A DNA stretch of 64,000 nt, from contig CAZUJN010000001.1 of the NCBI GenBank assembly GCA_964620475.1, positions 4,651 to 68,650 on the forward strand. Direction: 5' to 3'. Made by a program: the position numbers and the translations under genes. The notes beneath the pieces were generated by a model. That model made no database searches, was not told the DNA's origin, and saw only the letters and a list, made by a program, of their open reading frames with translations. Below are positions 41,982 to 60,748 of this stretch, in pieces. The stretch's first letter is position 1, and each line of letters starts with the position of its first letter. The stretch is from an uncultured Candidatus Saccharibacteria bacterium. GTDB taxonomy: Bacteria > Patescibacteriota > Minisyncoccia > Phycocordibacterales > CAIZLB01.

Positions 41982-41997
41982 ATGTTACTATATATAC

Positions 41998-44694: not shown

Positions 44695-45819
44695 CTATTT
44701 ATTCATAGGCATAACCATGTAAACATAACTATTATCATTCTTAGGTTTAATAACAGTAGGTGTTGTTTTTCCACTAATACCTATATTAACCTTATCTGAT
44801 TTTATTTTATTTAGGAAATCTGATAAATATCTATGATTATAGTTTTGTGTTATATTTTCACCTTTTTTAATTATATTTTTTGTTGAAAAAGTCTCACCTA
44901 TTTTATTGTTTTTAGAATAAAATTCTATATCATTATCTTTTATATCAACTTTAACATAGTTAAAATCATCAGAAAAAATATTAGATGCTTTTAAAGCATT
45001 AACAACATCATTTGTTTCAACTTCTATTTCAGTAATAAATTGGGTTGGTATTATTGCTTTATAATTAGGATATAAACCTGAAACAGTTCTAACACATAAC
45101 AAACTGTCGGATGTTTTTACACAAAATAAACCTTTTTCAAGAAAAATCGATATTGATATGTTTGAATATATAACTTTCAATAAATCATTTAATATTTTAG
45201 CTGATATAAGTATTTGTTTAAAATCTTCAATATTTTTGATATCATCTTTATTTATTTTTTTCTTTTTTTCAGCTAATCTAAAACCATCTGTTGCAACAAA
45301 ATATATAGTTTCATTGTCATAAGACATAAGAACACAAGATAGTTCTGGTTTTATACTAGATAGAGCAGCTGCAAAAGAAACTGATTGTATACCATCTATT
45401 AAAATATCCGAGTTAATAACCAAATTATTATCGTTATTTACATTAAAACTGGTCAAATTTGGATAGTTTGAAGCTGAAACGGTTTGTATATTAGATTCTT
45501 GGTTTTTAACCTTTATTTTAAGAGAATTTTCATTAAATTCTAAAATAACATTTTCATTTTTATCAAATAAGTTTAAATAACTTAAAATAATATTAGGATT
45601 TATACATATTTTTTTTGTTTTTCCTTCTGATAAGGTTTTAATGAAAACCTCTTGAGTATAAAATATATCTAGATTATAACTTGTTATCTTAAGATTGGAT
45701 GAATCAACAACTTCTAAAAGAATATTTTCTAAAATAGGTTGATTAGGATTCTTAATTGTTACCTTAGAAGCCTTACCTATTACATCTATTAATAATTCGT
45801 TTATTGTTTCTATCTGCAT
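44695..45819 (-). CDS. dnaN: DNA polymerase III beta sliding clamp
   Basis: 374 aa, position immediately downstream of dnaA; N-terminal pattern ...LENILLEVVDSSNLKITSYNLDI typical of beta clamp. Confidence 0.8.
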   Translation of the reverse strand: MQIETINELLIDVIGKASKVTIKNPNQPILENILLEVVDSSNLKITSYNLDIFYTQEVFIKTLSEGKTKKICINPNIILSYLNLFDKNENVILEFNENSLKIKVKNQESNIQTVSASNYPNLTSFNVNNDNNLVINSDILIDGIQSVSFAAALSSIKPELSCVLMSYDNETIYFVATDGFRLAEKKKKINKDDIKNIEDFKQILISAKILNDLLKVIYSNISISIFLEKGLFCVKTSDSLLCVRTVSGLYPNYKAIIPTQFITEIEVETNDVVNALKASNIFSDDFNYVKVDIKDNDIEFYSKNNKIGETFSTKNIIKKGENITQNYNHRYLSDFLNKIKSDKVNIGISGKTTPTVIKPKNDNSYVYMVMPMNK

Positions 45820-45925
45820 TTTTCTTTTTTTATTTAATTATACACAATACAGACTATTATGTCTGTGGATATCTTGATAACTGTATTATATGCATATAAC
45901 ACAAGGTTTTATTGTTTATAGATCA

Positions 45926-46082
45926 TGTGGATAATATTGTGGATATATGTGGATAAATAAGGTGTATAACTTTATATATGTGGATATATCTATATTAATT
46001 AACATTTTATACAGTATTTATACAAAGATATACAATATATATCAACATATTTATACATATATTATACACTTGATATCCACTT
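45926..46082. promoter_or_regulatory. oriC-like region: cluster of DnaA boxes (TGTGGATAA at 45926-45934 and 45948-45956; TGTGGATAt at 45938-45946 and ~45979-45987; aTATCCAC at ~46072-46080) with very AT-rich unwinding-element-like tract 45990-46070
   Basis: Exact matches to TTATCCACA consensus read on both strands, between dnaN and dnaA. Confidence 0.7.
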
Positions 46083-46097
46083 ATTTATACACAATTA

Positions 46098-47465
46098 TTA
46101 CATTCTTAACATTGATTTTATTTGACTTATTTCATCAAATAATGTCTGGTTTGAGGAAAGTTCATCCTTTATCTTTTCACAGGCATGCATGACTGTTGTA
46201 TGATCCCTACCCCCTAGTTTTTGACCTATATTTGATAATGAATAATTGAAATATTCTCTTAAAATATACATCAAAACCTGTCTAGGTTTAACAATCTCTT
46301 GTTTTCTGTTTTTTTCTATTAATAGTTTTTCATCTGTTTTATAAAAAGATGAAACTGCTTTAATTATATCTTTAAAAGAGGTATTTTCAGCTGTTTTTAC
46401 TATGTTTTTAGTCAGATTTTTAACTTCATCTAAAGAAAGTGTTCTACCTCTTATTTGAGATTGTATTGATATATTGTTTATTATACCTTCTATTTCTCTT
46501 ATACTACCATCTAACCCTTCAGCTAAATATTGTATAGTCTCTTGATCTAGTTTTGTATCACTTTGCTCTAGTTTTGACCTTATTATAGCTATTTTTGATT
46601 CAACATCTATTCTAGGTATATCTATGATCATACCTTGAGAAAACCTTGATTTTAAACGACTTTCTAGGTTTTGTAGATAATTTGGGTGTTGATCTGATGA
46701 AAAAATAATTTGTCTTTGATTATCATAAAGATGATTAAATAAATGAAATAATTCCTCCTGAGTTCTCTCTTTGTTTGATAAAAATTGTATATCATCCATT
46801 ATTAAAAGATCATATTTTTTATATTTTTCCTTAAAAACATTGGTTTTATTGTTTTGTAATGATGAAATATAGTCTGTTGTAAACCTCTCACTTGTTACAT
46901 AAAAAACCTTCTTATTAAGAGTGTTTTTATAATAATTACCAACAGCCTGCATAAGATGGGTTTTTCCTACCCCTGTACTACCATAGAAGAATAAAGGGTT
47001 GTAAAAACCAGGTTTTTTTATAATAGCTTGTGCCGAGGCATAAGCTAACTCATTAAAAGAACCAACAACAAAGGTATCAAATATGTATTTAGGGTTTAAA
47101 TTATCGTTTAAATCTATATAATTATCTTTTATAGGTAATTCATTCTTTTTATTATCATCTTTCTTGTTATCCCCTTCTTTTTCTTCGTTTTTTAATACTT
47201 TTTCTATTTTTGGAACAGATGGCAGTATAACAAATTCAACGTTTTTTATGTGTTCATTGTTTTTTCTTAAACTATTTAATATTTTTGTATAACATTTACT
47301 CTTAATCCAGTCTACAGCAAATGAGTTTTGAACCAAAACCTTAAAAACACCGTCTTCAAATGAGTCAACTTTGGTGTTTTTTAGCCAAGTATTATAACCA
47401 GATGGTGTAACAAAGGTTTTTATTTCCTCTAATGTTTTTTTCCAAATATTGTTATAAGCTTCCAT
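46098..47465 (-). CDS. dnaA: Chromosomal replication initiator DnaA
   Basis: AAA+ Walker A GSTGVGKTHL, LLIMDDIQFL, C-terminal DnaA-box binding domain (LGGRDHTTVMHACEKI). Confidence 0.95.
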   Translation of the reverse strand: MEAYNNIWKKTLEEIKTFVTPSGYNTWLKNTKVDSFEDGVFKVLVQNSFAVDWIKSKCYTKILNSLRKNNEHIKNVEFVILPSVPKIEKVLKNEEKEGDNKKDDNKKNELPIKDNYIDLNDNLNPKYIFDTFVVGSFNELAYASAQAIIKKPGFYNPLFFYGSTGVGKTHLMQAVGNYYKNTLNKKVFYVTSERFTTDYISSLQNNKTNVFKEKYKKYDLLIMDDIQFLSNKERTQEELFHLFNHLYDNQRQIIFSSDQHPNYLQNLESRLKSRFSQGMIIDIPRIDVESKIAIIRSKLEQSDTKLDQETIQYLAEGLDGSIREIEGIINNISIQSQIRGRTLSLDEVKNLTKNIVKTAENTSFKDIIKAVSSFYKTDEKLLIEKNRKQEIVKPRQVLMYILREYFNYSLSNIGQKLGGRDHTTVMHACEKIKDELSSNQTLFDEISQIKSMLRM

Positions 47466-47492
47466 GTGGATAAATTATATACCTGTGGATAA
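47465..47492. promoter_or_regulatory. Two DnaA boxes (TGTGGATAA at 47465-47473 and 47484-47492) in dnaA promoter/upstream region
   Basis: Exact 9-mers read from sequence. Confidence 0.65.
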
Positions 47493-47540
47493 CTTTTTTT
47501 ACCTTGTTTTTTTTATAAAATAATGTATATTGTTTATATT

Positions 47541-47693
47541 ATGTCAGTAACATATCAACCTAAAAAAAGAAAAAGAGCAAAAAAGCATGGTTTTCTATCT
47601 AGAACAAAAACACATGGCGGAAAGAGGGTTTTGCAAGCTAGAAGAAGAAAAGGTAGAAAAGATCTATCAAAAGTTGTAAAAAAAGTTAAATAA
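47541..47693 (+). CDS. rpmH: 50S ribosomal protein L34
   Basis: 50-aa [53 protein letters not shown], too short for the ORF track; canonical rpmH-rnpA order. Confidence 0.85.
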
Positions 47694-47728
47694 TTCAATA
47701 AAACCTTATAAAATAAGGATTTTAAGTT

Positions 47729-48007
47729 ATGTTATACTCAATAAAAACAATAAATCAGAAAGAAAAGTCTGGTTTTTTTGTTTATTTTGTGGCCAAAAAG
47801 AAGGTTTTTAAAACAGCTGTTTTAAGAAATAGAGCTAAAAGAATAGCAAGACATGGTTTTTATAAAGCAAAAAAAGACTTAATTTCAGACATTTTTCCTA
47901 ATAAACAGGTTATTTTCTTTCTAGAAAATGGTATTATTCAAGAGTCATTTGAAAATGTTGTAGAATCTTTTAAAAATGATTTATTAAAGATAATAAATAA
48001 AAAATAA
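47729..48007 (+). CDS. rnpA: Ribonuclease P protein component
   Basis: RNR motif AVLRNRAKRIARH; 92 aa; follows rpmH. Confidence 0.85.
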   Translation: MLYSIKTINQKEKSGFFVYFVAKKKVFKTAVLRNRAKRIARHGFYKAKKDLISDIFPNKQVIFFLENGIIQESFENVVESFKNDLLKIINKK

Positions 48008-48021
48008 ACTATAATTTATAT

Positions 48022-48756
48022 ATGTTCCACACATTATTTTATAAACCAATGTATAATGCATTGATTTTTATATTAGATATTTTACCTAACCACGATGTAG
48101 CTATTGCGGTAATAATTTTAACTGTTTTTATTAAAATTGTATTATTACCCCTTTCTCATAAAATGTTTAAAACACAAATATTACAAAGAAAGGTTCAACC
48201 TATAATATCTAAAATTCAAGAGGAATATAAAGATAATAGACAGATGCTTGGTATAAAATTATTAGAGGTTTATAAAGAACATAAACTAAACCCCTTCTCT
48301 TCTATATTGTTAATGTTAATACAAATACCTATAGTATTTGCTTTATATTTTGTTTTTTATAAAGGTGGTTTACCAAACATAAACACCATAGATCTATATA
48401 GTTTTACACCTTTTGTTAATAATGTTAACCATATATTATTTAATGTTGATTTTACAAAAGCAAATAGCTTTGTTGGATTGGTTGCTGCTTTGTTTCAATA
48501 TGCTCAAATACGTTTATCTCTTCAAAACATACAAACAACAGATAAACCTATTAATGAATTAAAACCTGAAGAAATAATGCAAAAACAAATGAGTTTTATG
48601 ATGAAGTGGTTTATACCGGTTTTGATCTTTATAGCCTCTTTAAAGGTTTCCGCAGCTGTAGCGTTGTATTGGATAGTCTCTTCTGTTTTTATGATAATAC
48701 AAGAATTATATTTTAGAAATAAATATAAAGAAGAGTTATTAAGCTTGAAGAAATAA
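48022..48756 (+). CDS. yidC: Membrane protein insertase YidC/Oxa1 (short form)
   Basis: 244 aa multi-TM protein immediately after rnpA; conserved synteny; hydrophilic-face TM pattern. Confidence 0.65.
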   Translation: MFHTLFYKPMYNALIFILDILPNHDVAIAVIILTVFIKIVLLPLSHKMFKTQILQRKVQPIISKIQEEYKDNRQMLGIKLLEVYKEHKLNPFSSILLMLIQIPIVFALYFVFYKGGLPNINTIDLYSFTPFVNNVNHILFNVDFTKANSFVGLVAALFQYAQIRLSLQNIQTTDKPINELKPEEIMQKQMSFMMKWFIPVLIFIASLKVSAAVALYWIVSSVFMIIQELYFRNKYKEELLSLKK

Positions 48757-48775
48757 TGAATTGTATCTAATAATA

Positions 48776-48812
48776 AAAATAAATCCATACTTTTTCGTAT
48801 GGATTTATTTTT
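48776..48812. terminator. Bidirectional terminator (aaatccatac-ttttc-gtatggattt)
   Basis: 10-bp perfect stem with T-runs, between convergent yidC and 48817..50130(-). Confidence 0.65.
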
Positions 48813-48816
48813 GGAA

Positions 48817-50130
48817 TTAGATTTCGTATTTCCACAAACTTAAAGAGTTTTTATCTTGAAACAATAAGTATTTGTTTGTATTTGATATTTTAATTTTATA
48901 TATATCTATGGAATTACTTACCATGTCTTGTAATGGAATTATTAATTTAAACTCACCGTTTACTGGATTTATTGACCAGATATTATCTGTAAATTCTATA
49001 TTATTTTTATACCAAGCCTCTGGGTAAGGTGCTTGATATAGTTTTTGTGGTATACCACAGAAAATAAGTTTAGAGTCGTTTGACCAAACACATTTATCTA
49101 CTATTGTTGCCTGTGATAAATATGTGTTTGTTTTTGATTTTATATCATAAATAAACGTTTCCAATGTGTTATTTATTATTTCATTATATATAACCTTTTT
49201 ACCATCAGGAGATACTAATGTATTAAATCCATACTTCTCACCTATTATATAAGTGTTTTTACCTTTACCATCAGGGTTTAAAAAGAATAAATACCCAGGA
49301 AAATAAGCACTTGGTTTTGTTGTTAAAGCTATTGTTGTTTTGTTTACATATTGAGATAACCACTCTGATAATACAGTATTTAATACATTTGTTCTTACTC
49401 CACCATCAAAACTAGATAATACACCTGTACCGGTATTATTTATAAAATAAAACAACCTTTTTGTTTCTTTTGATAAAGATAAGTTTGATGAACTTATATT
49501 AATATTACCCACATTTGCATTATATAAAGTTGAGGTTGCTGTATCTTTTATTAGTTTTAAATATGTTGTTGATATTGTCTCGTTGTCATCAGAAACCTTT
49601 CTGATTATTGCTGATATATTGTCTATAAACAAAACTTCTTCTGCCCCTATGAGTGTGAAGTAGGATAGCTTGTTTAAATCTGTTGTAGAGGCCAAATTTT
49701 CGTAAATATTACCTGTTTTCCTATCCCATAAGTATATGAATTCTTGATTCTTATAAATTTTTTTGTTTTTTATAGCCTGAATTACACTTGTTGTGGAATT
49801 ATTTGTGGAGGTAGCGACTTCTTCTATATCTTTATAAACAAAATCAAAACCACTAACAGGTTCTTTCCATATTTGTACTAATTTAGTTTTTGTTGTGTTA
49901 GTTGTTGGATTTTCTACAGATTTTTCATCACCTTCTTGTACATCATTTGACTGTGTTGATGTTGAGACTCTGGTTTGAAAAGGTGTTCTTGTTGGGTTTG
50001 TGTTTGTAACAGTGTTGTAATCAGATAAGTCACCTTGTGACACTTTATAGAATTTATATCCAAAATAAACTCCAAGACCAAATATGATTATAATTAATAT
50101 TATTATTGTTTTTTTGATTATATTTTGCAT
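48817..50130 (-). CDS. Membrane-anchored (N-terminal TM) beta-propeller-like protein (TolB-like PDGK repeats); last gene of the T4SS-like locus
   Basis: 437 aa; N-terminal TM IIILIIIIFGLGVYFGY; repeated ...PDGKxxxY... motifs. Confidence 0.4.
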   Translation of the reverse strand: MQNIIKKTIIILIIIIFGLGVYFGYKFYKVSQGDLSDYNTVTNTNPTRTPFQTRVSTSTQSNDVQEGDEKSVENPTTNTTKTKLVQIWKEPVSGFDFVYKDIEEVATSTNNSTTSVIQAIKNKKIYKNQEFIYLWDRKTGNIYENLASTTDLNKLSYFTLIGAEEVLFIDNISAIIRKVSDDNETISTTYLKLIKDTATSTLYNANVGNINISSSNLSLSKETKRLFYFINNTGTGVLSSFDGGVRTNVLNTVLSEWLSQYVNKTTIALTTKPSAYFPGYLFFLNPDGKGKNTYIIGEKYGFNTLVSPDGKKVIYNEIINNTLETFIYDIKSKTNTYLSQATIVDKCVWSNDSKLIFCGIPQKLYQAPYPEAWYKNNIEFTDNIWSINPVNGEFKLIIPLQDMVSNSIDIYKIKISNTNKYLLFQDKNSLSLWKYEI

Positions 50131-50147
50131 TTTATGTTTTTATTATA

Positions 50148-51341
50148 TTATGGATTTGAAATCTGCGCCCTTGCGGTTCCAAATGTTATATTCCATTGAC
50201 CGGCCGGTATGTTCTTTAAGACACTATTACTACCTATTGTTCCGTTTTCATCGTATATGTCTATTGTATTTGCAAACATTATTCCGTTATAAGAAGAGGC
50301 TGTTGCGTCTTCATAAAAACCAACACATGTTCCGTTTATAAAAACAGCTTGACCTGTTGATGGTCTGTATTTTGATATTAAATCAGGTGAAAGAGCTACT
50401 GAACCTTCTCTTAATAAATTATTTGCATTACCTCTTCTTTGTGCTGTGTTTGAATCCGTAATCGAATCTTTTGTTGCACTATACACAGTAACAACAAGTC
50501 TACCATCTGTTGATCTTACTCCGTTTGGTAAGCTTCTTATAAAATTTTCAGCACCAGATTCGGTCCAGCCAAAAACTGAGTTAAACATTGGGTTGTCTGT
50601 AGGGTTTCCTGTGTAAGGTATATTAGGTATTCCGTTGTTTGGAAAACTCCACCCAGGATTTTGATTTAAAACAGCATCTATACCACTAATGTTCCCTACC
50701 CAACTTGATGTTGCTACTGTTAAAACCTGATTTATACCTTTTTGTATTGATTTATCTACATCTATCTCAGATGGATTAAAATCAAACTCAACAAGCTTTT
50801 TATTAACTGTATACAATATTGTGTATGACAACAGACCTAAACCTAAAGCAATGAAACTGTTTGTTAATCTCTTCTTGGCCGCACCTTTTTTACCTACAGC
50901 TTCCTCTGTCATGTATTGTATACCTGATACAGCTATACTTATTACTGTTAACATTATTATTACAGTTATACCAACAGTAAAAAGCATTTTAACTATATCT
51001 TCTGTAGCGTTTGATACATTAACACAGGTTACATTTGGATTCTGTTTACTTTTTGTTAAAGATGAACCTATACCAGGAAAAGAGGTGTCTATACCTGAAA
51101 AAGGTTGATATTGCTTATCTTTTACATAATTACAATCTTTAGATGTAAACAACATTTGAACCAAAGTTTTTTGTTGTTCTGGTGCTGTTGGTGTTATGGA
51201 TGATCCTGGTGTTGTGGCAGGTTGAAGATTTGCAACACCACCTGGAATATTGGTGTTTGTTGGAAGATTAACAGCCGCTGAAACAGATATTGTTGTTAAA
51301 AATATTAGTATATATACTAGAGTGAATAATTTTTTATTCAT
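50148..51341 (-). CDS. Cell-wall hydrolase paralogue A: shared N-terminal module (signal peptide + two TM helices) + C-terminal 3D/MltA-like (Asp-rich double-psi beta-barrel) domain
   Basis: N-terminal 233 aa identical to next gene; C-terminal VALSPDLISKYRPSTGQAVFINGTCVGFYEDATASSYNGIMFANTIDIYDENG resembles 3D-domain motif. Confidence 0.55.
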   Translation of the reverse strand: MNKKLFTLVYILIFLTTISVSAAVNLPTNTNIPGGVANLQPATTPGSSITPTAPEQQKTLVQMLFTSKDCNYVKDKQYQPFSGIDTSFPGIGSSLTKSKQNPNVTCVNVSNATEDIVKMLFTVGITVIIMLTVISIAVSGIQYMTEEAVGKKGAAKKRLTNSFIALGLGLLSYTILYTVNKKLVEFDFNPSEIDVDKSIQKGINQVLTVATSSWVGNISGIDAVLNQNPGWSFPNNGIPNIPYTGNPTDNPMFNSVFGWTESGAENFIRSLPNGVRSTDGRLVVTVYSATKDSITDSNTAQRRGNANNLLREGSVALSPDLISKYRPSTGQAVFINGTCVGFYEDATASSYNGIMFANTIDIYDENGTIGSNSVLKNIPAGQWNITFGTARAQISNP

Positions 51342-51342
51342 A
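50641..51342. repeat. Copy 1 of ~702-bp direct repeat (identical 5' gene module)
   Basis: Identical translations in two frames (main ORF and shadow ORFs 50821..51108 / 52109..52396) imply nucleotide identity. Confidence 0.85.
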
Positions 51343-51378
51343 TCTAGATTATATCAAATTATTATGAGAGTTTGTATT

Positions 51379-52629
51379 TTATACTTTCTGACAAGATCTA
51401 TAAACATAAGTTTGTAGTCTCTTTTGTAGGTTATAATAACTAAACCACGATTGTGGTGTGAAGTGATCATCAACCATAGCCTGAGATGAACTGTTTGAAA
51501 CTATTTTACCTGTGCTTGTGTATATACCAACATGACCATGATTTGTTCCAACTGTTGGTGAGATTATTATATCTCCTGGTGTTGCTGCTGAAGGGTCTTG
51601 GCTCACCATACAAAAATAAATACTTGATGATAATGCATTGTTCATATCTATGGTGCTTTTTCCGTATGTATCCTCATCTCTTGTTATTGGCATACCCAAA
51701 GCTTTGTTTATAATATCATTCACAACAAAAGCACAAGCTAAAGCGCCACCAGATGTACCAGTATAATTACATGTCTTTGTACCAAGCATGTCTAAGGCCT
51801 CTTGATTTATTCTTTGGGCTGCCAATGTGTTTATTGATCCAGAACCAAAACCTGCTGTTGGTATTCCTCCTGAAAATGGATTGTTCGGGTTGGTTATTGA
51901 ACCTGGTGTTGTCGGTAAACCTCCTGAAGGAAAACTCCACCCAGGATTTTGATTTAAAACAGCATCTATACCACTAATGTTCCCTACCCAACTTGATGTT
52001 GCTACTGTTAAAACCTGATTTATACCTTTTTGTATTGATTTATCTACATCTATCTCAGATGGATTAAAATCAAACTCAACAAGCTTTTTATTAACTGTAT
52101 ACAATATTGTGTATGACAACAGACCTAAACCTAAAGCAATGAAACTGTTTGTTAATCTCTTCTTGGCCGCACCTTTTTTACCTACAGCTTCCTCTGTCAT
52201 GTATTGTATACCTGATACAGCTATACTTATTACTGTTAACATTATTATTACAGTTATACCAACAGTAAAAAGCATTTTAACTATATCTTCTGTAGCGTTT
52301 GATACATTAACACAGGTTACATTTGGATTCTGTTTACTTTTTGTTAAAGATGAACCTATACCAGGAAAAGAGGTGTCTATACCTGAAAAAGGTTGATATT
52401 GCTTATCTTTTACATAATTACAATCTTTAGATGTAAACAACATTTGAACCAAAGTTTTTTGTTGTTCTGGTGCTGTTGGTGTTATGGATGATCCTGGTGT
52501 TGTGGCAGGTTGAAGATTTGCAACACCACCTGGAATATTGGTGTTTGTTGGAAGATTAACAGCCGCTGAAACAGATATTGTTGTTAAAAATATTAGTATA
52601 TATACTAGAGTGAATAATTTTTTATTCAT
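51379..52629 (-). CDS. Cell-wall hydrolase paralogue B: shared N-terminal module + C-terminal CHAP (Cys/His-dependent amidohydrolase/peptidase) domain; VirB1/PrgK-like function inferred
   Basis: C-terminal TGTSGGALACAFVV...GDIIIS...GHVGIYTSTG is a CHAP-domain pattern (catalytic Cys then His). Confidence 0.6.
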   Translation of the reverse strand: MNKKLFTLVYILIFLTTISVSAAVNLPTNTNIPGGVANLQPATTPGSSITPTAPEQQKTLVQMLFTSKDCNYVKDKQYQPFSGIDTSFPGIGSSLTKSKQNPNVTCVNVSNATEDIVKMLFTVGITVIIMLTVISIAVSGIQYMTEEAVGKKGAAKKRLTNSFIALGLGLLSYTILYTVNKKLVEFDFNPSEIDVDKSIQKGINQVLTVATSSWVGNISGIDAVLNQNPGWSFPSGGLPTTPGSITNPNNPFSGGIPTAGFGSGSINTLAAQRINQEALDMLGTKTCNYTGTSGGALACAFVVNDIINKALGMPITRDEDTYGKSTIDMNNALSSSIYFCMVSQDPSAATPGDIIISPTVGTNHGHVGIYTSTGKIVSNSSSQAMVDDHFTPQSWFSYYNLQKRLQTYVYRSCQKV

Positions 52630-52630
52630 A
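51929..52630. repeat. Copy 2 of ~702-bp direct repeat
   Basis: See copy 1; 586-bp unique spacer between copies. Confidence 0.85.
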
Positions 52631-52633
52631 TTC

Positions 52634-53635
52634 TTATTTGTTTGTGTCTATGATATACAATATGTCTTTTGATTGTAGTATTGAGTTTTGGTTTTTTATT
52701 TTTATAGAAAGTTTAGATAATTCATCATCCTTCTTTTTTCTAAAAGATAACTCATTTGATGAATTTTTTATTTGTACATCATTTATATACCAACTATATA
52801 TTGTTGCTAAAGTTGAGTTTATTCCATAATAGAATGGATATGATACTATGGTTGCTTCGTTTTTACTTAATCTAAATTGAGGCTTGATTGTTTTGTTGAA
52901 TAATATTCCTAATAAAGGACTTTTTTCATAACTAATAATTTCTGTATCTAATGTTGGTATTCTTAATATAGCCTCATTGTTGTATGTTTTTGTTACAGTA
53001 TCTTTGTATGAATTTAATGCTGAAACAACCACACTAAATAAAGGCTCTTTTTTTAAGATATCACCTTTGTATGAAAAAGATGAATAACCAGCACCCGAAA
53101 CACTTCCTTTAACAACACCATCAACGCTCCACTTATAATTATTATATGTGTTTGTTAAAGGATTTTCTTGATCAAGGTTTATGGCATTTAGAATAATAGA
53201 TGATTCTGGTGTATACATTGATTTTCCTTTATAAAAAGGTGGTGTATAAGTTCTTGATTCCCATATTAATATAATTTTTTTAGGATCAAATACGAATTGT
53301 TTTTGTATTTTTGAACCATAATTTGTTGTAATCTCTAAATCAACCGTACTTTTTTTATCCAACACAAAATTTATTTTATTTAAACCCACACCAGATTTAA
53401 ATGATTTGTTGTTGATTTTCCAATCAAAAGCGGAATCAGAAATATTTGTACCATACATTTCTGCTGATATTGTGATTGTGTCACCTATGTTTGGTCTTTC
53501 TGGGTAAATATTAAAATATGTTTTCTCTTCTAATTCTGAAAAGTTTTCGGGCCCTGTTGCAGCATATGTATTTGAGGTTAAAAAATAGAAAAAAACTATT
53601 ATAAATATAAGTATAGATTTATAATTTAAATTCAT
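52634..53635 (-). CDS. Secreted hypothetical protein of the T4SS-like locus
   Basis: 333 aa; signal peptide SILIFIIVFFYFLTSNTYA; beta-rich. Confidence 0.4.
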   Translation of the reverse strand: MNLNYKSILIFIIVFFYFLTSNTYAATGPENFSELEEKTYFNIYPERPNIGDTITISAEMYGTNISDSAFDWKINNKSFKSGVGLNKINFVLDKKSTVDLEITTNYGSKIQKQFVFDPKKIILIWESRTYTPPFYKGKSMYTPESSIILNAINLDQENPLTNTYNNYKWSVDGVVKGSVSGAGYSSFSYKGDILKKEPLFSVVVSALNSYKDTVTKTYNNEAILRIPTLDTEIISYEKSPLLGILFNKTIKPQFRLSKNEATIVSYPFYYGINSTLATIYSWYINDVQIKNSSNELSFRKKKDDELSKLSIKIKNQNSILQSKDILYIIDTNK

Positions 53636-53654
53636 AAATTAATTATAACAGACT

Positions 53655-54029
53655 TTAATCTGAATAATAAGTAAAAAACACATTTGCTGTTATACAAGGT
53701 AGATTTCCTATAACTGGTATACCCTCCCCTAATGCAGTAAACGCCATTGATGTTATTTTTGTTAAATCACTAACTTTTAAAATACCAGAAAAAGCAAACC
53801 AAGGTATAAAAATTACTAAACTTAATATAGAGAATGCTATACCAACACCCGGAATCTCACTTAAAAAGAAACTAAACAAATCTAAAACAACAGCAACTAA
53901 AACCATACATATAAAATTTAATGTCACCCCTTTTTTTAAAAGGTTTTGACCTGCATTTACTGCTTGGGTTGCTTTGTTTGCTGGGTTTAATCTCTCTACC
54001 CTGCTTGGTGTTGCTAATTGTGTAGCCAT
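53655..54029 (-). CDS. Small membrane protein with two hydrophobic helices (VirB2/VirB3-like candidate)
   Basis: 124 aa; overlaps VirB4 stop by 16 nt; no motif. Confidence 0.35.
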   Translation of the reverse strand: MATQLATPSRVERLNPANKATQAVNAGQNLLKKGVTLNFICMVLVAVVLDLFSFFLSEIPGVGIAFSILSLVIFIPWFAFSGILKVSDLTKITSMAFTALGEGIPVIGNLPCITANVFFTYYSD

Positions 54030-55837
54030 TCTTTATTTTTGTCTTTATTAGCATTAGCTAATAATTCTTCTGGGTTAGATGTAATAATGTCATGTTCTGT
54101 TCCTGATGATACAACTTTTAATGCGACGTGTTTTTGACCGGCGAAGAATATACCCTCTCCAACCCCGGACTCCAATAATAAATATTTTTCCTCATCTGTA
54201 AGATTGAATGTCTTTTGAACCATATCTATGGATGAAGGTGATTGTTTTAAAAGAAATTGCATAGATGAGTTTGTTATGATTGGTAGACCATAAGGAGATC
54301 TCAAGAAATCTTCAACATCTTGGGTTATTGTTGAAATACCTAAATAGTATTTACGACCTCTTTTTGCCAATCCAAACAAGAACGAGGCTGTATCTTCAGA
54401 TTTCATCATATACCATGCCTCATCAACAACCAAAAGCCTCTTTTTCAACTCTTTTCTAACAAGATTCCATATGTGATGCATAACTATATACATAGCCACA
54501 GGTTTTAATTCTTCTTCCATATCTCTAAGTGAAAAAACCACAAGCTTTTTGTTTATGTCTAGGTTAGATGGTTTATTTATAAAGCCAGACCAAGTACCTT
54601 TTGTATATTTTGTAAGCCTTTGTACAAGCGACTCTCCTCCCTCCATACCAGCTAATACAAGTTCAAAATCAGACATAAGCGGTGGTTCTATTGCAGCAAA
54701 ATTTGATTCTGGGGTTATGTCTTTAAGTGCATATGTTTCTGTTATTGCTCTATCTATAACAGAATCCTCTTCTGGTGTAAGTCCTCCAAGCATAAGCCTA
54801 AACAACCCTACTAGATTTACTATATGTGATCTTAAAACATCTGCTGGAGACTCATCTTCTCTTGGTACAGGAAGATCGAACGGGTTGATGTGGTTTTCTG
54901 AAGTAAGTGATATGTTAAAATATCTACCACCAAGTGTTTCGGTCATTCTCTCATATTCTCTTTCGGGGTCTAGAACTATAACATCAACATCAAACATTAA
55001 AGATCTCAATATTTCTAATTTTGTTGCGTATGATTTACCTGAACCAGACTTTGCAAAAGTTACTGAGTTGTAGTTTTCAAGCGAAAATCGATCAAATAAC
55101 ACTAAACCGTTGTTGTGTCTGTTTAAACCATATAAAATACCTTTATCTGATGTTAAATCAAAAGATATAAAAGGAAATATACTTGATAATGGTGCAGAAT
55201 TTAGTTTTGAATGCACAGCCATCTCATCAGTTGCTACAGGTATAGTTGTTTTGAAACCTTGTTCTTGTTGAAATAGTGATGGTTTTATAAATACAAGTGA
55301 AGCCTCAAGTGTTGATTTTATTTCTGATTCAACTTTGTTTAATTCTTCTTCGCTATCACCGTATACTGATATATATATTCCCACATCAAATATTTTCTCT
55401 TGTGCTTGTTGTAAATTATCACGCAGCTGCTCTAAGTTTTGATAAGATGCATCAAGTTGAGGGTCACGAACCAAACCTTTTTCCTCTCTATCGTTTATTT
55501 GACTTTGAACTTCTGCAACTTTCTTTTTGAATTCGTTTAATATAACTGATGTATCTATAGGGTGTACAAATATAGAAACATCAAAAGCTTTATCTAGATT
55601 TATTATAGGAGAAAACCAAGAGTCTGAAAGGTATTTTGGGTATGACATGACGAAGAAGCTTCTAACTAGCTTCTCCCCTAAATTAAGGGTCTTGGGACTT
55701 ATTTTTAGTGCAGAGGGTGCGATAATGTCTTTTAATTCTAATACCGCAGATCTATAAATATCTTTCGGTAATATAGAAGTTATTTGTTGAGTTTTGTTTG
55801 TGTTGTTTTTTGGTTTTAAAAAATCTAGAAATCCCAT
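54014..55837 (-). CDS. VirB4/TrbE/PrgJ-family type IV secretion ATPase
   Basis: Walker A FAKSGSGKSYAT, Walker B LLVVDEAW, length 607 aa typical of Gram-positive VirB4. Confidence 0.85.
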   Translation of the reverse strand: MGFLDFLKPKNNTNKTQQITSILPKDIYRSAVLELKDIIAPSALKISPKTLNLGEKLVRSFFVMSYPKYLSDSWFSPIINLDKAFDVSIFVHPIDTSVILNEFKKKVAEVQSQINDREEKGLVRDPQLDASYQNLEQLRDNLQQAQEKIFDVGIYISVYGDSEEELNKVESEIKSTLEASLVFIKPSLFQQEQGFKTTIPVATDEMAVHSKLNSAPLSSIFPFISFDLTSDKGILYGLNRHNNGLVLFDRFSLENYNSVTFAKSGSGKSYATKLEILRSLMFDVDVIVLDPEREYERMTETLGGRYFNISLTSENHINPFDLPVPREDESPADVLRSHIVNLVGLFRLMLGGLTPEEDSVIDRAITETYALKDITPESNFAAIEPPLMSDFELVLAGMEGGESLVQRLTKYTKGTWSGFINKPSNLDINKKLVVFSLRDMEEELKPVAMYIVMHHIWNLVRKELKKRLLVVDEAWYMMKSEDTASFLFGLAKRGRKYYLGISTITQDVEDFLRSPYGLPIITNSSMQFLLKQSPSSIDMVQKTFNLTDEEKYLLLESGVGEGIFFAGQKHVALKVVSSGTEHDIITSNPEELLANANKDKNKEWLHN

Positions 55838-55847
55838 AATGTATATA

Positions 55848-56465
55848 TTACATCTTTATTGGTTTTTCTGCATCTCCTGGATTAAATATTCTATAAAACA
55901 ATTCAACCAATTCCTCACTTCCTAGTCTTGCAACTTTAACACCACATCTTGCTAAACCTTGTTCAACCACAGATATTCTTTGTTCTAGCTGACTCTTTAT
56001 TTCTTCAAACTCATCATTTTTGTTTTTTGTTTCGTCTTTGTCTTTTTTTAGTATATTTGCAATTCCTTTTGTTGGACTTGATACAGGGTCATAAGGAATA
56101 ACCAAAAAGAAACTCTTTGTCATAATATTTGAACCTTCTGTTAAACCTTTAATGAACATTATGTATTCACTAATTTGTATTTTCATCAAATCACTGGTTT
56201 GAGCCTTTAGTCTCTCCTCCAATAATGCTATATAAGGTCTAATATCTAATTTTCTTGATTGTACATATATTTGTACTGAAAAATCCAGAGAGTTCAAGAA
56301 GTTTTGAAATTGATATATAACAGATTCTTGTTCCTCTGTTGATTTTAATGCAAAGTTTATTGACGTAGCCAATACAACCGCTCTCATAGAGCCATCTTTT
56401 AAGATCATAATACCTTCACGTATTTCATTTATAGGTACAAATTCTTGTGATGGGTTTATTGCCAT
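55848..56465 (-). CDS. Hypothetical protein (205 aa), possibly VirB4 N-terminal-domain-like, 10 bp upstream of VirB4
   Basis: EIREGIMILKDGSMRAVVLATSINFAL resembles the VirB4 N-terminal consensus (..tkdGsl.a..ev.gi.f..); weak. Confidence 0.3.
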   Translation of the reverse strand: MAINPSQEFVPINEIREGIMILKDGSMRAVVLATSINFALKSTEEQESVIYQFQNFLNSLDFSVQIYVQSRKLDIRPYIALLEERLKAQTSDLMKIQISEYIMFIKGLTEGSNIMTKSFFLVIPYDPVSSPTKGIANILKKDKDETKNKNDEFEEIKSQLEQRISVVEQGLARCGVKVARLGSEELVELFYRIFNPGDAEKPIKM

Positions 56466-56578: not shown

Positions 56579-57001
56579 TTACTCTTTATTGGTTGGGTAG
56601 ACATTTTTGTTAACATCCAAACTCCAAGCCAAATCTTTTAACTTACTTTGTGATAGTGAAGGTGCAATTATTGAATCAATACTCTTTGTTTCAATTTCTT
56701 TCTTCTCTGCTGTGACTGGTTTATCTATTTTTTTCCATATATATAATTTTGATTTTGTTACATAAGCAAACCCTGCTGCCAAAATATCAACAAAATCTTT
56801 ATTATTTATTTTTACAAAAGCCAATGAACCTGCTAAGATCCACAAAACTATCATTAATATTATTCCAGGAAAGAAGCCTAATATTTTGTATATTATATAA
56901 GTACCACCTAATCCACCTAATATATAGATAAATTGCTTAAAACTAAATGGTCCTATTATTTTACTATCGAATTCTATAAATTGTGGTACTTGATATCTCA
57001 T
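56579..57001 (-). CDS. PrgI/VirB3-like small membrane protein of Gram-positive-type T4SS
   Basis: MRYQVPQFIEFDSKIIGPFSFKQFIYIL N-terminus resembles the PrgI family; two TM helices; 140 aa. Confidence 0.45.
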   Translation of the reverse strand: MRYQVPQFIEFDSKIIGPFSFKQFIYILGGLGGTYIIYKILGFFPGIILMIVLWILAGSLAFVKINNKDFVDILAAGFAYVTKSKLYIWKKIDKPVTAEKKEIETKSIDSIIAPSLSQSKLKDLAWSLDVNKNVYPTNKE

Positions 57002-57002
57002 A

Positions 57003-57755
57003 TTATTCTATTGGTTCTCTATATATATCGTTTAGGTTTATATTAATTGGTTTTTTAATTTCTGACTGTGTTTTGGTTTCGGATTCCTTAACAATTTTTT
57101 CTTCATGAAATGGTGTCTCTAGCTCTTTGTTTTGTAGTTGATGGTCTGGTTCTATTGGTTTTATTTCTGGTTGTGGGGCTGTAAATTTAATCTCGGTCTC
57201 CACTCTAGGTTTTACTGGTTCTGGTGATTCTATGGCTTTTAATATATCATCTTTTTCTTGATCTATATTTTCAGGTATTTCTTTTATCTCTTCTTTTACA
57301 GGTTCTTTTGCTAATTCCTCTTCTACTTCTTGGTTTATTTTTTCAGCTTCTTTGTAGAATTGTGCATAGGTCTCTGCTTCCTCTTTTTGTTCTATTTCTT
57401 CTTCAGACATAAGCGCTTTTTCAAACTCTTCCTCCTCTTCTTCACTTTTTTCCATCGATTCTAGTCGTTCTCTTATTTTTTTTAATATTTGCATATCAAC
57501 ATCTAGCAATATATCAGCGGCTGTTTCAGAGTTTACGTGTCCGTTGTTGAACATGTTTGAGATAAAATCAGGGGCATCTATATCACCAAACATAAGTTTA
57601 ATAACTGAATCCTCTAAGACTTGTGTCTGGTCTATGTGCAATTTATATTTGTTTTGTATATTAATTAATGATTCCTCCCAATCGGACATCATTACTGCAT
57701 ATTGTAAGTTTTCGGGTAGAGTTTTTAATTTTTCTTCGTAATATGTTTGATTCAT
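57003..57755 (-). CDS. Acidic Glu-rich hypothetical protein
   Basis: 250 aa, E/K-rich coiled-coil-like. Confidence 0.35.
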   Translation of the reverse strand: MNQTYYEEKLKTLPENLQYAVMMSDWEESLINIQNKYKLHIDQTQVLEDSVIKLMFGDIDAPDFISNMFNNGHVNSETAADILLDVDMQILKKIRERLESMEKSEEEEEEFEKALMSEEEIEQKEEAETYAQFYKEAEKINQEVEEELAKEPVKEEIKEIPENIDQEKDDILKAIESPEPVKPRVETEIKFTAPQPEIKPIEPDHQLQNKELETPFHEEKIVKESETKTQSEIKKPININLNDIYREPIE

Positions 57756-57775: not shown

Positions 57776-60748
57776 CTACTTATTTTCTTTTTTTGCATCT
57801 TCTATTTTTTGTAGATGTTCGCTTAATTTCATCTTTTTTTCTATTAACTCTTCTTCATGTTTGTTTAATTTCTCTATGTACTTATTTTTTGATTCTTCAA
57901 GATTATCTTCTAGTTTTTTGATTGCTTCAGGACTGATATTACCTCTTTTTTTGGCTGATTTTAGGTATATTATGTTTTTATTTATTTCTTTTATTTCATC
58001 TGTATTGTCACCGTCTCCAACATATTTACTGTCTTGTGATATACATTCTTTTATTTTGTCTTCTGTAGGCAGTTTACTTAATTTAGATTCTATTGTCTTT
58101 ATATCTTTTTCATATTTTTTCGTCCTATCCTCGTTTCTTTGTGTTGAAGCTGTGGTGCTCTTACTGTTTTTTATTTTAGATGATATTGCTGTGATTCTTG
58201 CTTTTGCTTTTTCATTCTTTCTTCTAAATGTTTCTAATGCCCTCTTTTGATCATTGGTTATATCAGCACCATTTTGTGCCCCTTCGCCATCTGTGTGATA
58301 TTTAACAACGTTTTCTAATTCGGTGTGCATTGCATGCTCGTTTAATCTTACTGTTATTTTCTTGTTACCTTGATCGTCTGTTGTTTCTGATTTTATAACA
58401 GCTGCTCTTCTTATATTATCTAGATGTGATAATGCATTACCTTTATCATCTTTTTTGCCTGAGTTTATTTGTACGACACCTTTGCCAAGTAATGCTGATG
58501 ATCTATCTTCTATTAATTTATTTAGATAGTTTTCATAATCATCTGTGGTTTTGTTTTTATTTTTCTTCATCCATTCATCTTGTGACATAGCTTTGTATTT
58601 TGCGTCTATTGCATCATATACAGCATCACGTGTTTCTTTAACACCTTTATCTCTTCTTTCGTCTGCTTGTTTTCTTGTCTCGCCAGCAGAGTTTTTAGGA
58701 TCTTTGAGTTGTGTTGCCATTTTTGCAGCTCTCTCCCCTAATATATTATTTGGATTGTTTGCTGCTATAGATCGGGCAAGATCTCTCATACCTTCTTTAA
58801 CAGTTATGCTTGGATTATAAAAACCTTCACTAAATGTTTTACCTCTCAGTTTACTTAATCCACCTGTTGCTGTTCCTGCTGTCAACTTGGCCGCACCTAT
58901 ACCAACACCGGCCGCTGCTGATGATGATTTCTCCCAAGTTTTTTTGGCTAAGCCTTTTGTGGCTGCATCTTGCCAGCTGCCAAATTTATTTGCAACACTT
59001 TGGCTCCATTTGCCCCCAATGGTCTCACCTGTTCCTGCTGCGTGTTTAACACCATAACTTATAGCTCTCATCATAAATATAATGACTATGACAAATACAG
59101 CAAATACTGATATGGTCTCAGTAGACATACCGCTCGTACCAGCTGCCGGCGGCTGACATATTATCTGTAAGAAGCTTGTTCCGTTTGCTCCTGATCCTAA
59201 TTTTTCAAATATTATAATAGCTACCAACATCCAAAAAAGATATGCTATTGGAAATGTTAATACATGCTTCATTTCTGCCCACCAACTGTCTTTGAACTTA
59301 GAAACATGCGGGTTGTTTGGTAACACATAACCCCAAACCCATAAAGGTGATTTTATAAACAATACTATTATGTTTACTAATCTGACCAAAAACAATACCG
59401 CTGCCAAACCTAAAGCCAAACACAATATAACTAAGAATATTGAACCCAGAACAGATATTGTTATCAATGCCCCAGGATTATTTGCACAAGCGTTTGTACC
59501 AGCCAGACCGCTGTCGGCAAATATTTGGTTTATGTTATATAAAGCAGATAGACCAACAGTGTTCATTACTCTAGCTGATATAGAAGCTGTTGCATCCTGT
59601 GTGCTGCTTGCTTTCATTGTCTCGTATATTTTCAGGGATACTATGTTTGAACCATCAACCATAATCTTGGCCGCAAATAAACTGAAGTTTATTAATATGG
59701 CAACAACCACAACATTCATCAATACTTTTTTTGCATTGTATTGAGCTTCATTACCTATCAATATCTGTATAGCTGCCCACAACAATATAAATATAAAAGT
59801 TATATTTAATATATCCCTTAGAAATGTCCATGTAACCTCTATCACACCAAGTTTTTTGAAAAATTCTGCTGAGTTTATAGAGAGCTCTAATGAGTAGTCA
59901 AACAATACTCCGACTATATATGTGATAAAAGACATCAACTTGAATATGATGTTTGTGCCTTGTGCAACTAACCACATCATACAGTGTGGGGTGAACATAC
60001 TTAAGACAGTGCTGCATTGTGTTTGTGAAGCCTGCCAACCTTGTGTTTGATTGATCTGATTTTCTATTCCAGCCAGCTGACCTCCAGCCTGAACAACCGC
60101 CCTACCGGCCTCATCCGCTGCTTGTCTTGCTGTTCTTGCTGCTGTTATGGCCTGGTCTATTTGGGCCTGTGTTGCATTAGGATCGTTTTGTAATGTTGCA
60201 GCTTCCTGCTCTTTCTGTTTTGCTATTTCTGCTAATCTGTCGTACTCATTTTGTTTTTCTTGTTTTGCTAATTCTGCATTATATCTTTCGTTTTTTAGTT
60301 TAACTGTGGTGCCAGGCTCTAGTCCCTGAGCTTTATCAACTCGATCAAAAAACCCCTCAGCCTCTTTAGATTCTTTGTACATATTAGGATCTTCTGGAAC
60401 AAACATATAGTCTTTTGTTCCATCTTTTTCTTGCACCATTGTTCCTAATACAACAGCATCTCTATTTTTTGTGTTTTCAGGGGTCGGGTCATATATAAAG
60501 ATGTTGTTTTGACCTGTATTAATTCTATAAACATTGTTTGTGTTCCACTTAGCTTCTCTTACATTAAATTTTGAATTAGAAGCCTCCAGTCTTTCTTGTA
60601 ACATTGATAGTTGATAAGGTGCTAGTTCAGAAACTGTCCTATCACCAGAGTATAAGTTCTCTGCCTTTATGGATGTTACTGGTACCAAAAAAACACACAA
60701 GAAGATTATTCCTAAAAAAATATTTTTTATAGATTTATACATATGCAT
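57776..60748 (-). CDS. VirB6/TrbL-like polytopic membrane protein (990 aa): signal peptide, ~250-aa extracytoplasmic domain, 6+ TM helices, long charged/coiled-coil C-terminal tail
   Basis: Architecture matches TrbL/VirB6 and Gram-positive PrgH/TcpH; multiple long hydrophobic helices aa ~250-620. Confidence 0.5.
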   Translation of the reverse strand: MHMYKSIKNIFLGIIFLCVFLVPVTSIKAENLYSGDRTVSELAPYQLSMLQERLEASNSKFNVREAKWNTNNVYRINTGQNNIFIYDPTPENTKNRDAVVLGTMVQEKDGTKDYMFVPEDPNMYKESKEAEGFFDRVDKAQGLEPGTTVKLKNERYNAELAKQEKQNEYDRLAEIAKQKEQEAATLQNDPNATQAQIDQAITAARTARQAADEAGRAVVQAGGQLAGIENQINQTQGWQASQTQCSTVLSMFTPHCMMWLVAQGTNIIFKLMSFITYIVGVLFDYSLELSINSAEFFKKLGVIEVTWTFLRDILNITFIFILLWAAIQILIGNEAQYNAKKVLMNVVVVAILINFSLFAAKIMVDGSNIVSLKIYETMKASSTQDATASISARVMNTVGLSALYNINQIFADSGLAGTNACANNPGALITISVLGSIFLVILCLALGLAAVLFLVRLVNIIVLFIKSPLWVWGYVLPNNPHVSKFKDSWWAEMKHVLTFPIAYLFWMLVAIIIFEKLGSGANGTSFLQIICQPPAAGTSGMSTETISVFAVFVIVIIFMMRAISYGVKHAAGTGETIGGKWSQSVANKFGSWQDAATKGLAKKTWEKSSSAAAGVGIGAAKLTAGTATGGLSKLRGKTFSEGFYNPSITVKEGMRDLARSIAANNPNNILGERAAKMATQLKDPKNSAGETRKQADERRDKGVKETRDAVYDAIDAKYKAMSQDEWMKKNKNKTTDDYENYLNKLIEDRSSALLGKGVVQINSGKKDDKGNALSHLDNIRRAAVIKSETTDDQGNKKITVRLNEHAMHTELENVVKYHTDGEGAQNGADITNDQKRALETFRRKNEKAKARITAISSKIKNSKSTTASTQRNEDRTKKYEKDIKTIESKLSKLPTEDKIKECISQDSKYVGDGDNTDEIKEINKNIIYLKSAKKRGNISPEAIKKLEDNLEESKNKYIEKLNKHEEELIEKKMKLSEHLQKIEDAKKENK

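Follow-up and report, generated by a model that had tools for sequence, protein, structure and literature searches.

Two adjacent genes, geneB and geneA, lie in the operon of a type IV secretion system (T4SS) of an uncultured, ultra-small Candidatus Saccharibacteria bacterium (Patescibacteria), within a 64,000-nucleotide stretch of contig CAZUJN010000001.1 (positions 4,651 to 68,650, forward strand; the whole stretch is termed the window). Here, we focus on the DNA that the two genes have in common, on the unrelated domains in which they end, and on the related loci that help to explain both.

Architecture of the gene pair

The 5′ parts of geneB and geneA form an exact direct repeat of 703 bp with no mismatches and an offset of 1288 bp, the single such run in the window (table 1). 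Each copy comprises 2 nucleotides (nt) upstream of the ATG and the first 234 codons of its gene. Identity ends abruptly on either side, the flanks are random-like, and an exact match of this length at a GC content of 31.6% (that of the window) cannot be chance. The two proteins are identical over residues 1–234, diverge immediately past ...NQNPGWSFP and are about 56% identical across their full length; the geneB product is present in the databases as protein P0002. The repeat is direct, and a repeat search of the window found no inverted repeats. Two antisense open reading frames (ORFs), one in each copy, have the same translation and are by-products of the repeat, not genes. An earlier note on this DNA had anticipated the identical gene starts (its 702 bp are the coding part of the repeat), the point of divergence and the identical shadow ORFs; nucleotide comparison of the two copies, which it had proposed as a check, confirms all three and shows that the copies are not substantially diverged.

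Table 1. Features of the gene pair, its T4SS locus and related loci. Positions are those of the window unless a locus is named; slots and C-terminal types are defined in the text.
Feature	Position	Strand	Description	Evidence
Direct repeat copy 1	51929..52631		5′ part of geneB and 2 nt upstream of ATG	exact match to copy 2
Direct repeat copy 2	50641..51343		5′ part of geneA and 2 nt upstream of ATG	exact match to copy 1
geneB	51379..52629	minus	416 aa, slot 1: pilin-like anchor, Gly/Pro/Asn-rich linker, NlpC/P60 peptidase	ORF, Pfam
geneA	50148..51341	minus	397 aa, slot 2: same anchor, linker, MltA-like double-psi beta-barrel (T0)	ORF, AF2 model, fold searches
Signal peptide, geneB	52561..52629	minus	aa 1–23, MNKKLFTLVYILIFLTTISVSAA; predicted Sec signal peptide	hydrophobic N-terminal segment; cleavage site inferred from sequence
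Signal peptide, geneA	51273..51341	minus	counterpart of that of geneB	
Thr/Pro/Gly-rich spacer	52450..52560, 51162..51272		aa 24–60	
VirB2-type hairpin, geneB	52096..52284	minus	TM1 aa 116–141, basic loop aa 142–160 QYMTEEAVGKKGAAKKRLT, TM2 aa 161–178	
VirB2-type hairpin, geneA	50808..50996	minus	same as that of geneB	
NlpC/P60 domain, geneB	51463..51765	minus	aa 289–389, candidate catalytic Cys299 and His366	Pfam NLPC_P60
T0 domain, geneA	50151..50570	minus	aa 258–397, double-psi beta-barrel	AF2 model, fold searches
Spacer geneB/geneA	51342..51378	minus	unique, 37 nt, no ORF; links 3′ end of geneB to repeat copy 2	
Antisense shadow ORF	50821..51108	plus	twin at 52109..52396; antisense to conserved hairpin-coding sequence	
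p437	48817..50130	minus	membrane-anchored protein encoded immediately past the 3′ end of geneA; conserved, with synteny in every related locus	
p333	52634..53635	minus	conserved secreted protein encoded 4 nt upstream of geneB; synteny in every related locus	
p124	53655..54029	minus		
VirB4-like T4SS ATPase	54014..55837	minus	607 aa	NCBIfam conju_CD1110, E 8e-110, 368 bits (cut-off 325)
TrsD/TraC-N-like protein	55848..56465	minus	205 aa, separate ORF in every relative	
PrgI/VirB3-like protein	56579..57001	minus	140 aa	Pfam PrgI, E 3.3e-5
p250	57003..57755	minus		
VirB6-position protein	57776..60748	minus	990 aa, extended-VirB6 position, fast-evolving	position only; synteny, ~40% identity to relatives
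dnaN, dnaA, rnpA, yidC	44695..48756		flank of T4SS operon	
ksgA	62884..63669		other flank of T4SS operon	
Class A penicillin-binding protein	41953..44445			
181–193-aa partner of T1	L001:9414–9983, L002:7426–7983, L003:4108–4689, L006:3356–3937, L009:4520–5065; also L053, L054		follows the T1 gene	

The shared module consists, in order, of a signal peptide, a Pro/Thr/Gly-rich spacer, a motif of two invariant cysteines (Cys70 and Cys106), a two-helix hairpin and a helical segment that runs up to ...NQNPGWSFP. In a hydropathy analysis, only the signal peptide and the first transmembrane helix (TM1) exceed the threshold, and the second helix (TM2) is supported by the AF2 model of the homologue P0030, which has helices at residues 98–134 and 139–169 (pLDDT 60–69). 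Together with inspection of the sequence, these results give both proteins the signal peptide, two hydrophobic helices and short basic loop of a VirB2-like pilin, in the neighbourhood of a T4SS: VirB4 is encoded 1.4 kb upstream in the same operon. At 397 and 416 aa, with C-terminal enzyme domains, neither is a small stand-alone pilin. The hairpin matches the Pfam family T4SS_pilin (PF18895) with E values of 1.3e-4 to 5e-4 and 20.5–22.4 bits, which misses the gathering cut-off of 26.6; in geneB, the match spans aa 125–177. The window anchors would satisfy the less strict rule of PMC12102498 (i-E < 0.001, coverage > 50%). T4SS_pilin is matched by 11 of 21 homologous modules (best E 4.1e-7), and the hairpin also matches the NCBIfam Mbov_0395 pilin-like conjugal transfer family (E 1e-4). 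The modular architecture proposed in the earlier note, a signal peptide, a linker and a VirB2-like hairpin with a Lys-rich loop, is upheld. With a clade-specific hidden Markov model of the module, geneA and geneB are the sole matches in the window. By the positive-inside rule, the hairpin loop would be cytoplasmic, and both termini and the C-terminal domains extracellular.

The Thr/Pro/Gly-rich spacer is a low-complexity surface segment, the length of which changes quickly. It is 27 residues longer in a lineage about 95% identical to the window that has a single gene (L043, L045 and L047), where the protein has 424 aa instead of 397.

The C-terminal domain of geneB is an NlpC/P60 domain. The Pfam model NLPC_P60 (PF00877; cut-off 23) scores 25.4 bits against the C-terminus alone and 23.3 bits against the full-length protein, and the candidate catalytic residues Cys299 (LACAF) and His366 (GHVGIY) are invariant across five homologues. 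A profile of the domain aligns weakly, at its His motif, with two DL-endopeptidases, CwlO and MepS, and the domain matches a PHROG endolysin family (E 8e-5). NlpC/P60 fits better than CHAP (PF05257), which scores 14.8–16.6 bits against a cut-off of 26; the two are related papain-like peptidase families.

The C-terminal domain of geneA, here termed T0, is recognised at the level of fold. An AF2 model and fold searches identify a double-psi beta-barrel with MltA as the best structural match, and three aspartates (Asp345, Asp361 and Asp364) are invariant and a fourth (Asp320) nearly so. At the level of sequence, there is no Pfam family at E ≤ 10, neither the 3D domain (PF06725) nor a related model matches, a T0 profile searched against PDB sequences returns only noise (FtsA and designed proteins), and ten distant relatives carry no annotation of a known barrel family. 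The earlier description of the two C-termini as '3D/MltA-like' and CHAP therefore stands for fold and superfamily but not for family membership, since the CHAP scores fall below the cut-off and geneA has no sequence match. The T0 family is small: a search of 1.84 billion representatives at E ≤ 1e-3 yields only 180 clusters. Apart from pilin fusions, the domain was seen in three settings, namely as the C-terminal part of a phage tail protein (phrog_350, E 8e-27), in combination with a CHAP/NlpC-P60 domain and adjacent to a Phage_base_V baseplate-spike OB domain (database proteins P0054, of 635 aa, P0106 and P0129). Such contexts are typical of wall-degrading domains, and from these T0 appears to be an unannotated wall-degrading family.

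Two slots and four C-terminal types

A homologue search with geneA retrieves 65 proteins, many of them in pairs with N-termini that are identical over 81–275 aa and C-termini that differ. Clustering of the C-termini separates four types on the same anchor: T0 is the geneA type and T3 the geneB type. All three members of T1 give weak matches to Tlde1_dom (E 0.02–0.09) and share an invariant RIHPDG...GC motif, while T2 has bacterial expansins as its best, weak, Foldseek matches (E 0.05, probability 0.8). Searches of PDB sequences gave no match for T2 and only spurious beta-trefoil designs for T1, so that both assignments rest on weak Pfam or Foldseek evidence. Profile–profile comparison of T0 with T2 found no relationship (hhalign probability 3.9%).

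Syntenic loci in independent assemblies have a common gene order: p333, slot 1, slot 2, p437 and yidC. Slot 1 is occupied by a peptidase-type domain (T1 or T3) and slot 2 by a barrel-type domain (T0 or T2); all four combinations occur, and T1 with T3 or T0 with T2 is never seen among the syntenic loci. The T1 gene is always followed by a gene for a conserved membrane-anchored protein of 181–193 aa (7/7 loci), whereas T3 is followed directly by the next gene. In this protein, an N-terminal TM helix and a low-complexity spacer precede a conserved C-terminal domain of about 100 aa that ends in ...NQYNQLK; the protein has no Pfam match and is absent when NlpC/P60 occupies slot 1. It may serve the Tlde1-like variant as an immunity or regulatory partner. 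A 79-aa ORF that follows the NlpC/P60 gene in L004 was considered as an immunity gene and rejected, since it is merely the start of the second anchor gene, which a run of masked bases cuts short. In the window, the spacers downstream of geneB and geneA (37 and 17 nt) contain no ORF. Neither orphan enzyme cassettes nor a conserved junction motif were found.

In more distant Patescibacterial loci (L014, L015, L017, L022 and L033), the T4SS_pilin hairpin is fused to Peptidase_C39_2, NlpC/P60, GH18, SLT_3 (lysozyme-like) or Peptidase_M23 domains. Some of these proteins have the hairpin in the middle and reach 500–900 aa, and tandem paralogues are about 70–77% identical in nucleotide sequence over alignable stretches. 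Fusion of pilin hairpins to enzymes thus seems to be phylum-wide.

A probable membrane-anchored pair of wall-cutting enzymes

The gene pair is likely to encode a pilin-anchored, two-enzyme wall-cutting module of the T4SS, the anchor of which is in concerted evolution. The Sec signal peptide would export each protein, the VirB2-type hairpin (TM1, a Lys/Arg-rich cytoplasmic loop and TM2) would anchor it in the membrane, and a flexible linker would display the enzyme outside the cell. There, the Cys–His peptidase of geneB is predicted to cut peptide stems, and the MltA-like double-psi beta-barrel of geneA may cut glycan strands. Both enzymes are probably brought by the pilin-like module to a single T4SS site, or assembled through it into a pilus-like structure. 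As with the two-domain VirB1-like enzymes of Gram-positive conjugation systems, glycan and peptide bonds would then be cleaved jointly at the point where the machine passes through peptidoglycan. By predicted topology, domain assignment and context, geneA and geneB share features listed for that class in PMC12857230: membrane-anchored, extracellular wall-cleaving domains encoded in a T4SS locus. The identity of the two anchors suggests that a single T4SS interface, for docking or for polymerisation, has to accept both proteins.

The target could be the organism's own wall or that of a host. Since a class A penicillin-binding protein is encoded in the window, the organism has peptidoglycan of its own, and there is no other VirB1-like gene in the T4SS locus; the pair may therefore be needed for its own wall. 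This weighs against the alternative of a host-directed weapon, in which effectors displayed on a pilus or at its tip would breach the wall of the host and enzyme cassettes would be swapped to suit the chemistry of that wall, as in polymorphic toxins. We regard this alternative as possible but rather unlikely. Against it, orphan cassettes are not seen, the window genes are followed by no immunity-like ORF, and a membrane anchor of two TM helices speaks against release. In its favour, the enzyme families in the slots are swapped between close relatives, and the T0 domain otherwise occurs on phage tail and baseplate proteins, which attack walls from outside. The other slot-1 domain, T1, bears a weak resemblance to Tlde1, an effector of the type VI secretion system, and together with its constant membrane-anchored partner it resembles an effector–immunity cassette. 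The fast evolution between species of the anchor, p124, the VirB6-position protein and p333 would also suit a weapon, and effector delivery by T4SS has been proposed for Patescibacteria (PMC11665869).

A more elaborate form of the host-directed idea is speculative. The T4SS 'pilins' of this Parcubacteria-like clade would be enzyme carriers, and fusions of anchor and enzyme would build or tip a pilus-like drill through host peptidoglycan. If this were true, one subunit would cut glycan strands and the other peptide stems, and conversion would preserve one identical module for polymerisation or docking and thereby let the two enzymes assemble together. Slot-wise exchange of cassettes, including the Tlde1-like domain with its immunity-like partner, would adapt the drill to different host walls, and the essential T4SS of Patescibacteria would have a concrete job at the interface between epibiont and host.

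Concerted evolution of the anchor

The wall-cutting pair is not confined to the window, and comparison of eight assemblies separates the history of the anchor from that of the enzymes. The assemblies represent seven lineages, because L001 and L008 come from one strain (99.987% identical); the comparison of these two is therefore uninformative as a direct test of concerted evolution. Over 7790 aligned bp, these two differ at one base, inside anchor copy 2 (gene position 794). Within genomes, the two anchors are 99.2–100% identical in six of the eight assemblies and 78–80% identical in the other two (table 2). Between genomes, protein identity is only 47–55% for the anchor, against 90–96% for VirB4, 76–81% for YidC and 75% for the T0 domain.

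Table 2. Nucleotide identity between the two anchor copies of each assembly.
Assembly	Aligned length (bp)	Identity (%)
Window	703	100
L001	848	100
L008	848	99.9
L002	742	99.7
L003	627	99.2
L009	526	99.2
L006	466	79.6
L004	520	77.5

In a neighbour-joining tree, anchor copies pair by genome in seven of seven cases, genomes with diverged copies included, while C-terminal domains pair by type across genomes (T1 46–78%, T2 68–85%, T0 74% and T3 56% identity). This is the pattern of concerted evolution, in which paralogues cluster by genome and the unconverted parts keep their orthology. It is clearest in L002 and L006, which are mutual closest relatives with orthologous T1 (78%) and T2 (85%) domains but with anchors that are 99.7% and 79.6% identical, respectively. 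Of the informative sites between them, 125 support pairing within genomes, three support orthology and two a third grouping; the three orthology sites fall in the first ~25 nt, just outside the L002 identity tract. Depending on the genome, the tract begins at a point between 23 nt ahead of the ATG and about 185 nt into the gene. Because anchors group by genome, C-termini group by type and tract ends vary, the pair must be old, with a 5′ module that has been homogenised repeatedly and independently. In the lineage of the window, the last homogenisation postdates the split from a lineage about 5% diverged, since both copies share all 28–30 differences from it.

Gene conversion of an ancient pair, rather than recent duplication, is thus very likely to be what keeps the anchors identical. 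Intrachromosomal conversion would overwrite one anchor copy with the other and leave the non-homologous, enzyme-coding 3′ halves untouched. The earlier note had favoured recent domain shuffling or duplication, in which a single tandem duplication was followed by a swap of the 3′ domain and identity reflects youth. The lack of any difference over 703 bp would be expected of a very recent duplication, and the C-terminal types do differ between close relatives; nevertheless, this explanation is improbable. The two-gene, two-slot layout is common to genomes in which the proteins of housekeeping neighbours are only 73–80% identical, and L004 and L006 have the same layout with diverged copies. The contrast between L002 and L006, whose C-terminal domains are orthologous, and the residual orthology signal at the extreme 5′ end are likewise at odds with a young pair. 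At least six independent events of duplication plus fusion, all with the same architecture, would be needed.

Reliability of the tandem repeat

The window derives from a metagenome-assembled contig, and exact repeats that exceed the read length are often mis-resolved. In a short-read assembly, a tandem repeat may be walked as one graph edge, which wipes out a few true differences, and the 100% identity of the window anchors is most safely taken as at least about 99%. A more serious artefact, in which a repeat has been collapsed or made chimeric, or two strain alleles with different C-termini have been joined in tandem, is highly unlikely, even though related contigs (L044, L047 and L053–L055) break or hold Ns within the anchor. 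The unique 37-nt spacer joins the stop codon of geneB to copy 2, so that the arrangement is a tandem and not a pair of alternative alleles, which would give a bubble in the assembly graph and not a loop. Nor is the tandem layout as such an artefact, because L004 and L006 keep it with clearly diverged copies, where it is unambiguous. Independent projects and assemblers recovered it in L002, L003, L008 and L009 with one to four mismatches retained, and anchor identity in related genomes assembled independently is 99.2–100%. Finally, L046, a strain 99.7% identical to the window, has the same geneB C-terminus, 37-nt spacer and geneA.

Across 2709 bp (window 49190–51898), L046 differs from the window at eight positions, all in or beside anchor copy 2 (51366, 51349, 51334, 51327, 50850, 50847, 50846 and 50834) and none in the ~2 kb of unique sequence. 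This cluster could be a patchy recombination footprint or noise from cross-strain or low-coverage assembly (2.9x).

In several metagenomes (L044, L053, L054, L055 and L047), contig starts, ends or N-gaps fall inside the anchor module. Exact repeats thus break or mis-scaffold metagenome assemblies at this locus, which suggests that near-identical anchor pairs regularly do so and may be under-counted in surveys of metagenome-assembled genomes.

Single-gene forms

Recombinant or deleted forms, a check proposed in the earlier note, do exist among relatives of the window. Two contigs, L043 (SPAdes) and L045 (MEGAHIT, from another sample), are 91–95% identical to it in nucleotide sequence and carry a single anchor–T0 gene. 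The order in L045 is VirB4, p124, p333, anchor–T0 (424 aa) and p437, and the shorter L043 contig covers p333 and anchor–T0 only. The p333/anchor and anchor/T0 junctions agree with those of the window, and this form is exactly the product of recombination between the repeats. Coverage of some contigs is low (1.9x for L043), which is a caveat. Two lineages further removed from the window (L048/L049, and L050) have single-gene forms as well; the tandem form is retained in L046, and L047, from the 424-aa lineage, is ambiguous because of a 100-N gap within the anchor. The barrel domain of slot 2 is kept in every single-gene form, as deletion between direct repeats requires, and deletion is the parsimonious direction because outgroups carry two genes. 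Occasional recombination between the repeats would thus delete the enzyme domain of geneB and leave a single anchor–barrel gene.

The existence of such products bears out the suggestion that the repeat is a substrate for recombination, but not the further one of switching. A programmed switch (phase variation) between two hydrolase specificities would fit long perfect direct repeats and the natural occurrence of one-gene and two-gene forms, but it is extremely improbable: both genes are complete, in the same orientation and in one operon with nothing silent, direct repeats that recombine delete sequence with no way back, the locus has neither inverted repeats nor a recombinase gene, and the single-gene forms belong to lineages at least about 5% diverged and not to sub-populations of the same strain.

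The T4SS locus

The genes on the minus strand follow the order KsgA, two unknown proteins, the 990-aa VirB6-position protein, p250, the PrgI/VirB3-like protein, the TrsD-like protein, VirB4, p124, p333, geneB, geneA and p437, past which yidC, rnpA, dnaA and dnaN follow. The T4SS operon is therefore chromosomal and lies at the replication origin; it is of the MPF-FATA-like, origin-proximal type that has been described for many Patescibacteria (PMC12102498). Operon structure was judged from spacing only, and a scan for promoters and terminators across 48700–54100 gave the same result as shuffled sequence. The function of VirB4 is split (54014–56465, minus strand) between the 205-aa TrsD/TraC-N-like ORF and the 607-aa ATPase ORF, a genuine two-gene arrangement and not a frameshift, because it is conserved in every related locus (L001, L002, L004 and L047). 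The 990-aa protein has no Pfam or NCBIfam match and, with p124, p250, p333 and p437, is one of five conserved proteins of the locus for which no family assignment was obtained. It and p124 are encoded by the fastest-evolving genes of the locus, with about 40–47% identity where VirB4 exceeds 90%. The closest genome relatives of the window are labelled Candidatus Parcubacteria or Nomurabacteria.

Comparison with known systems

The finding falls within known kinds, namely the wall hydrolases of T4SSs, the pilin arrays of Patescibacteria and the concerted evolution of bacterial genes, and calls for no new category. Among Gram-positive T4SSs, CwlT of ICEBs1 is a VirB1-like hydrolase. TraG (pIP501), PrgK (pCF10) and Orf14 (Tn916) are others (reviewed in PMC12857230). 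Like geneA and geneB, such proteins are encoded in a T4SS locus and are membrane-anchored with their catalytic domains outside the cell, where cleavage of glycan is paired with a peptidase of the CHAP or NlpC/P60 kind. They differ in that both activities reside in one protein, instead of two separate proteins; in their single N-terminal TM helix, where the window proteins have a signal peptide and a VirB2-type hairpin; and in the use of an SLT or muramidase domain, where the window has a double-psi beta-barrel and anchors in concerted evolution. To MltA and YuiC, which are lytic transglycosylases of the MltA and 3D-domain kinds, and to bacterial expansins, T0 shows no detectable similarity in sequence, with no Pfam or PDB sequence match.

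The T4SS of Patescibacteria is widespread and is essential in the one species tested, while its role has been described as completely unknown (PMC11665869, PMC12857230). The VirB2-like arrays of this phylum (PMC12102498; Wang et al. 2023, PMC10633639) are similar to the locus described here in that tandem PF18895 genes accompany a T4SS near dnaA; the genes of such an array are essential in Southlakia epibionticum (PMC12102498; PMC10633639), as are peptidase and lysozyme homologues downstream of virB4, and in Paceibacteria VirB1 homologues are associated with VirB4 (PMC12102498). The published arrays are divergent in sequence, with a mean identity of 25% and a maximum of 54%, which we assume to be whole-protein measures (PMC12102498), whereas here the pilin module is identical at the DNA level and each copy carries an enzyme. 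Whole-protein statistics, if that is what they are, would hide DNA-identical modules. Neither the fusion of a hydrolase to a pilin hairpin nor homogenised modules are described in the literature searched, which includes PMC12102498 and covers the field incompletely. In one large clade, the sole VirB2-like proteins are predicted to be membrane anchors for two complementary wall-cutting enzymes; the recurrence of hairpin fusions to NlpC/P60, C39-like, GH18, M23 and lysozyme-like domains points the T4SS at peptidoglycan and provides testable enzymes.

Polymorphic toxins (CdiA-CT, Rhs and MafB) likewise join a constant N-terminal delivery module to interchangeable C-terminal enzymes, and the dedicated small protein after the Tlde1-like variant adds to the likeness. 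The gene pair differs in having two fixed slots with complementary activities instead of one variable tip, no immunity gene beside the window genes, no orphan cassettes or conserved junction motif found, and an identity tract that varies in extent by genome. The closest parallel to the behaviour of the anchor is the concerted evolution by gene conversion known from bacteria (cases in PMC6053082), in which the paralogues of one genome resemble each other more than the orthologues of different genomes do, and which recurs across lineages. Here, conversion is limited to one module of two mosaic genes, the remainder of which is non-homologous, and repeat-mediated deletion recurs as well. The pair thus provides a clean natural example of module-restricted concerted evolution, with DNA-identical halves, unrelated other halves and the predicted deletion product found in nature.

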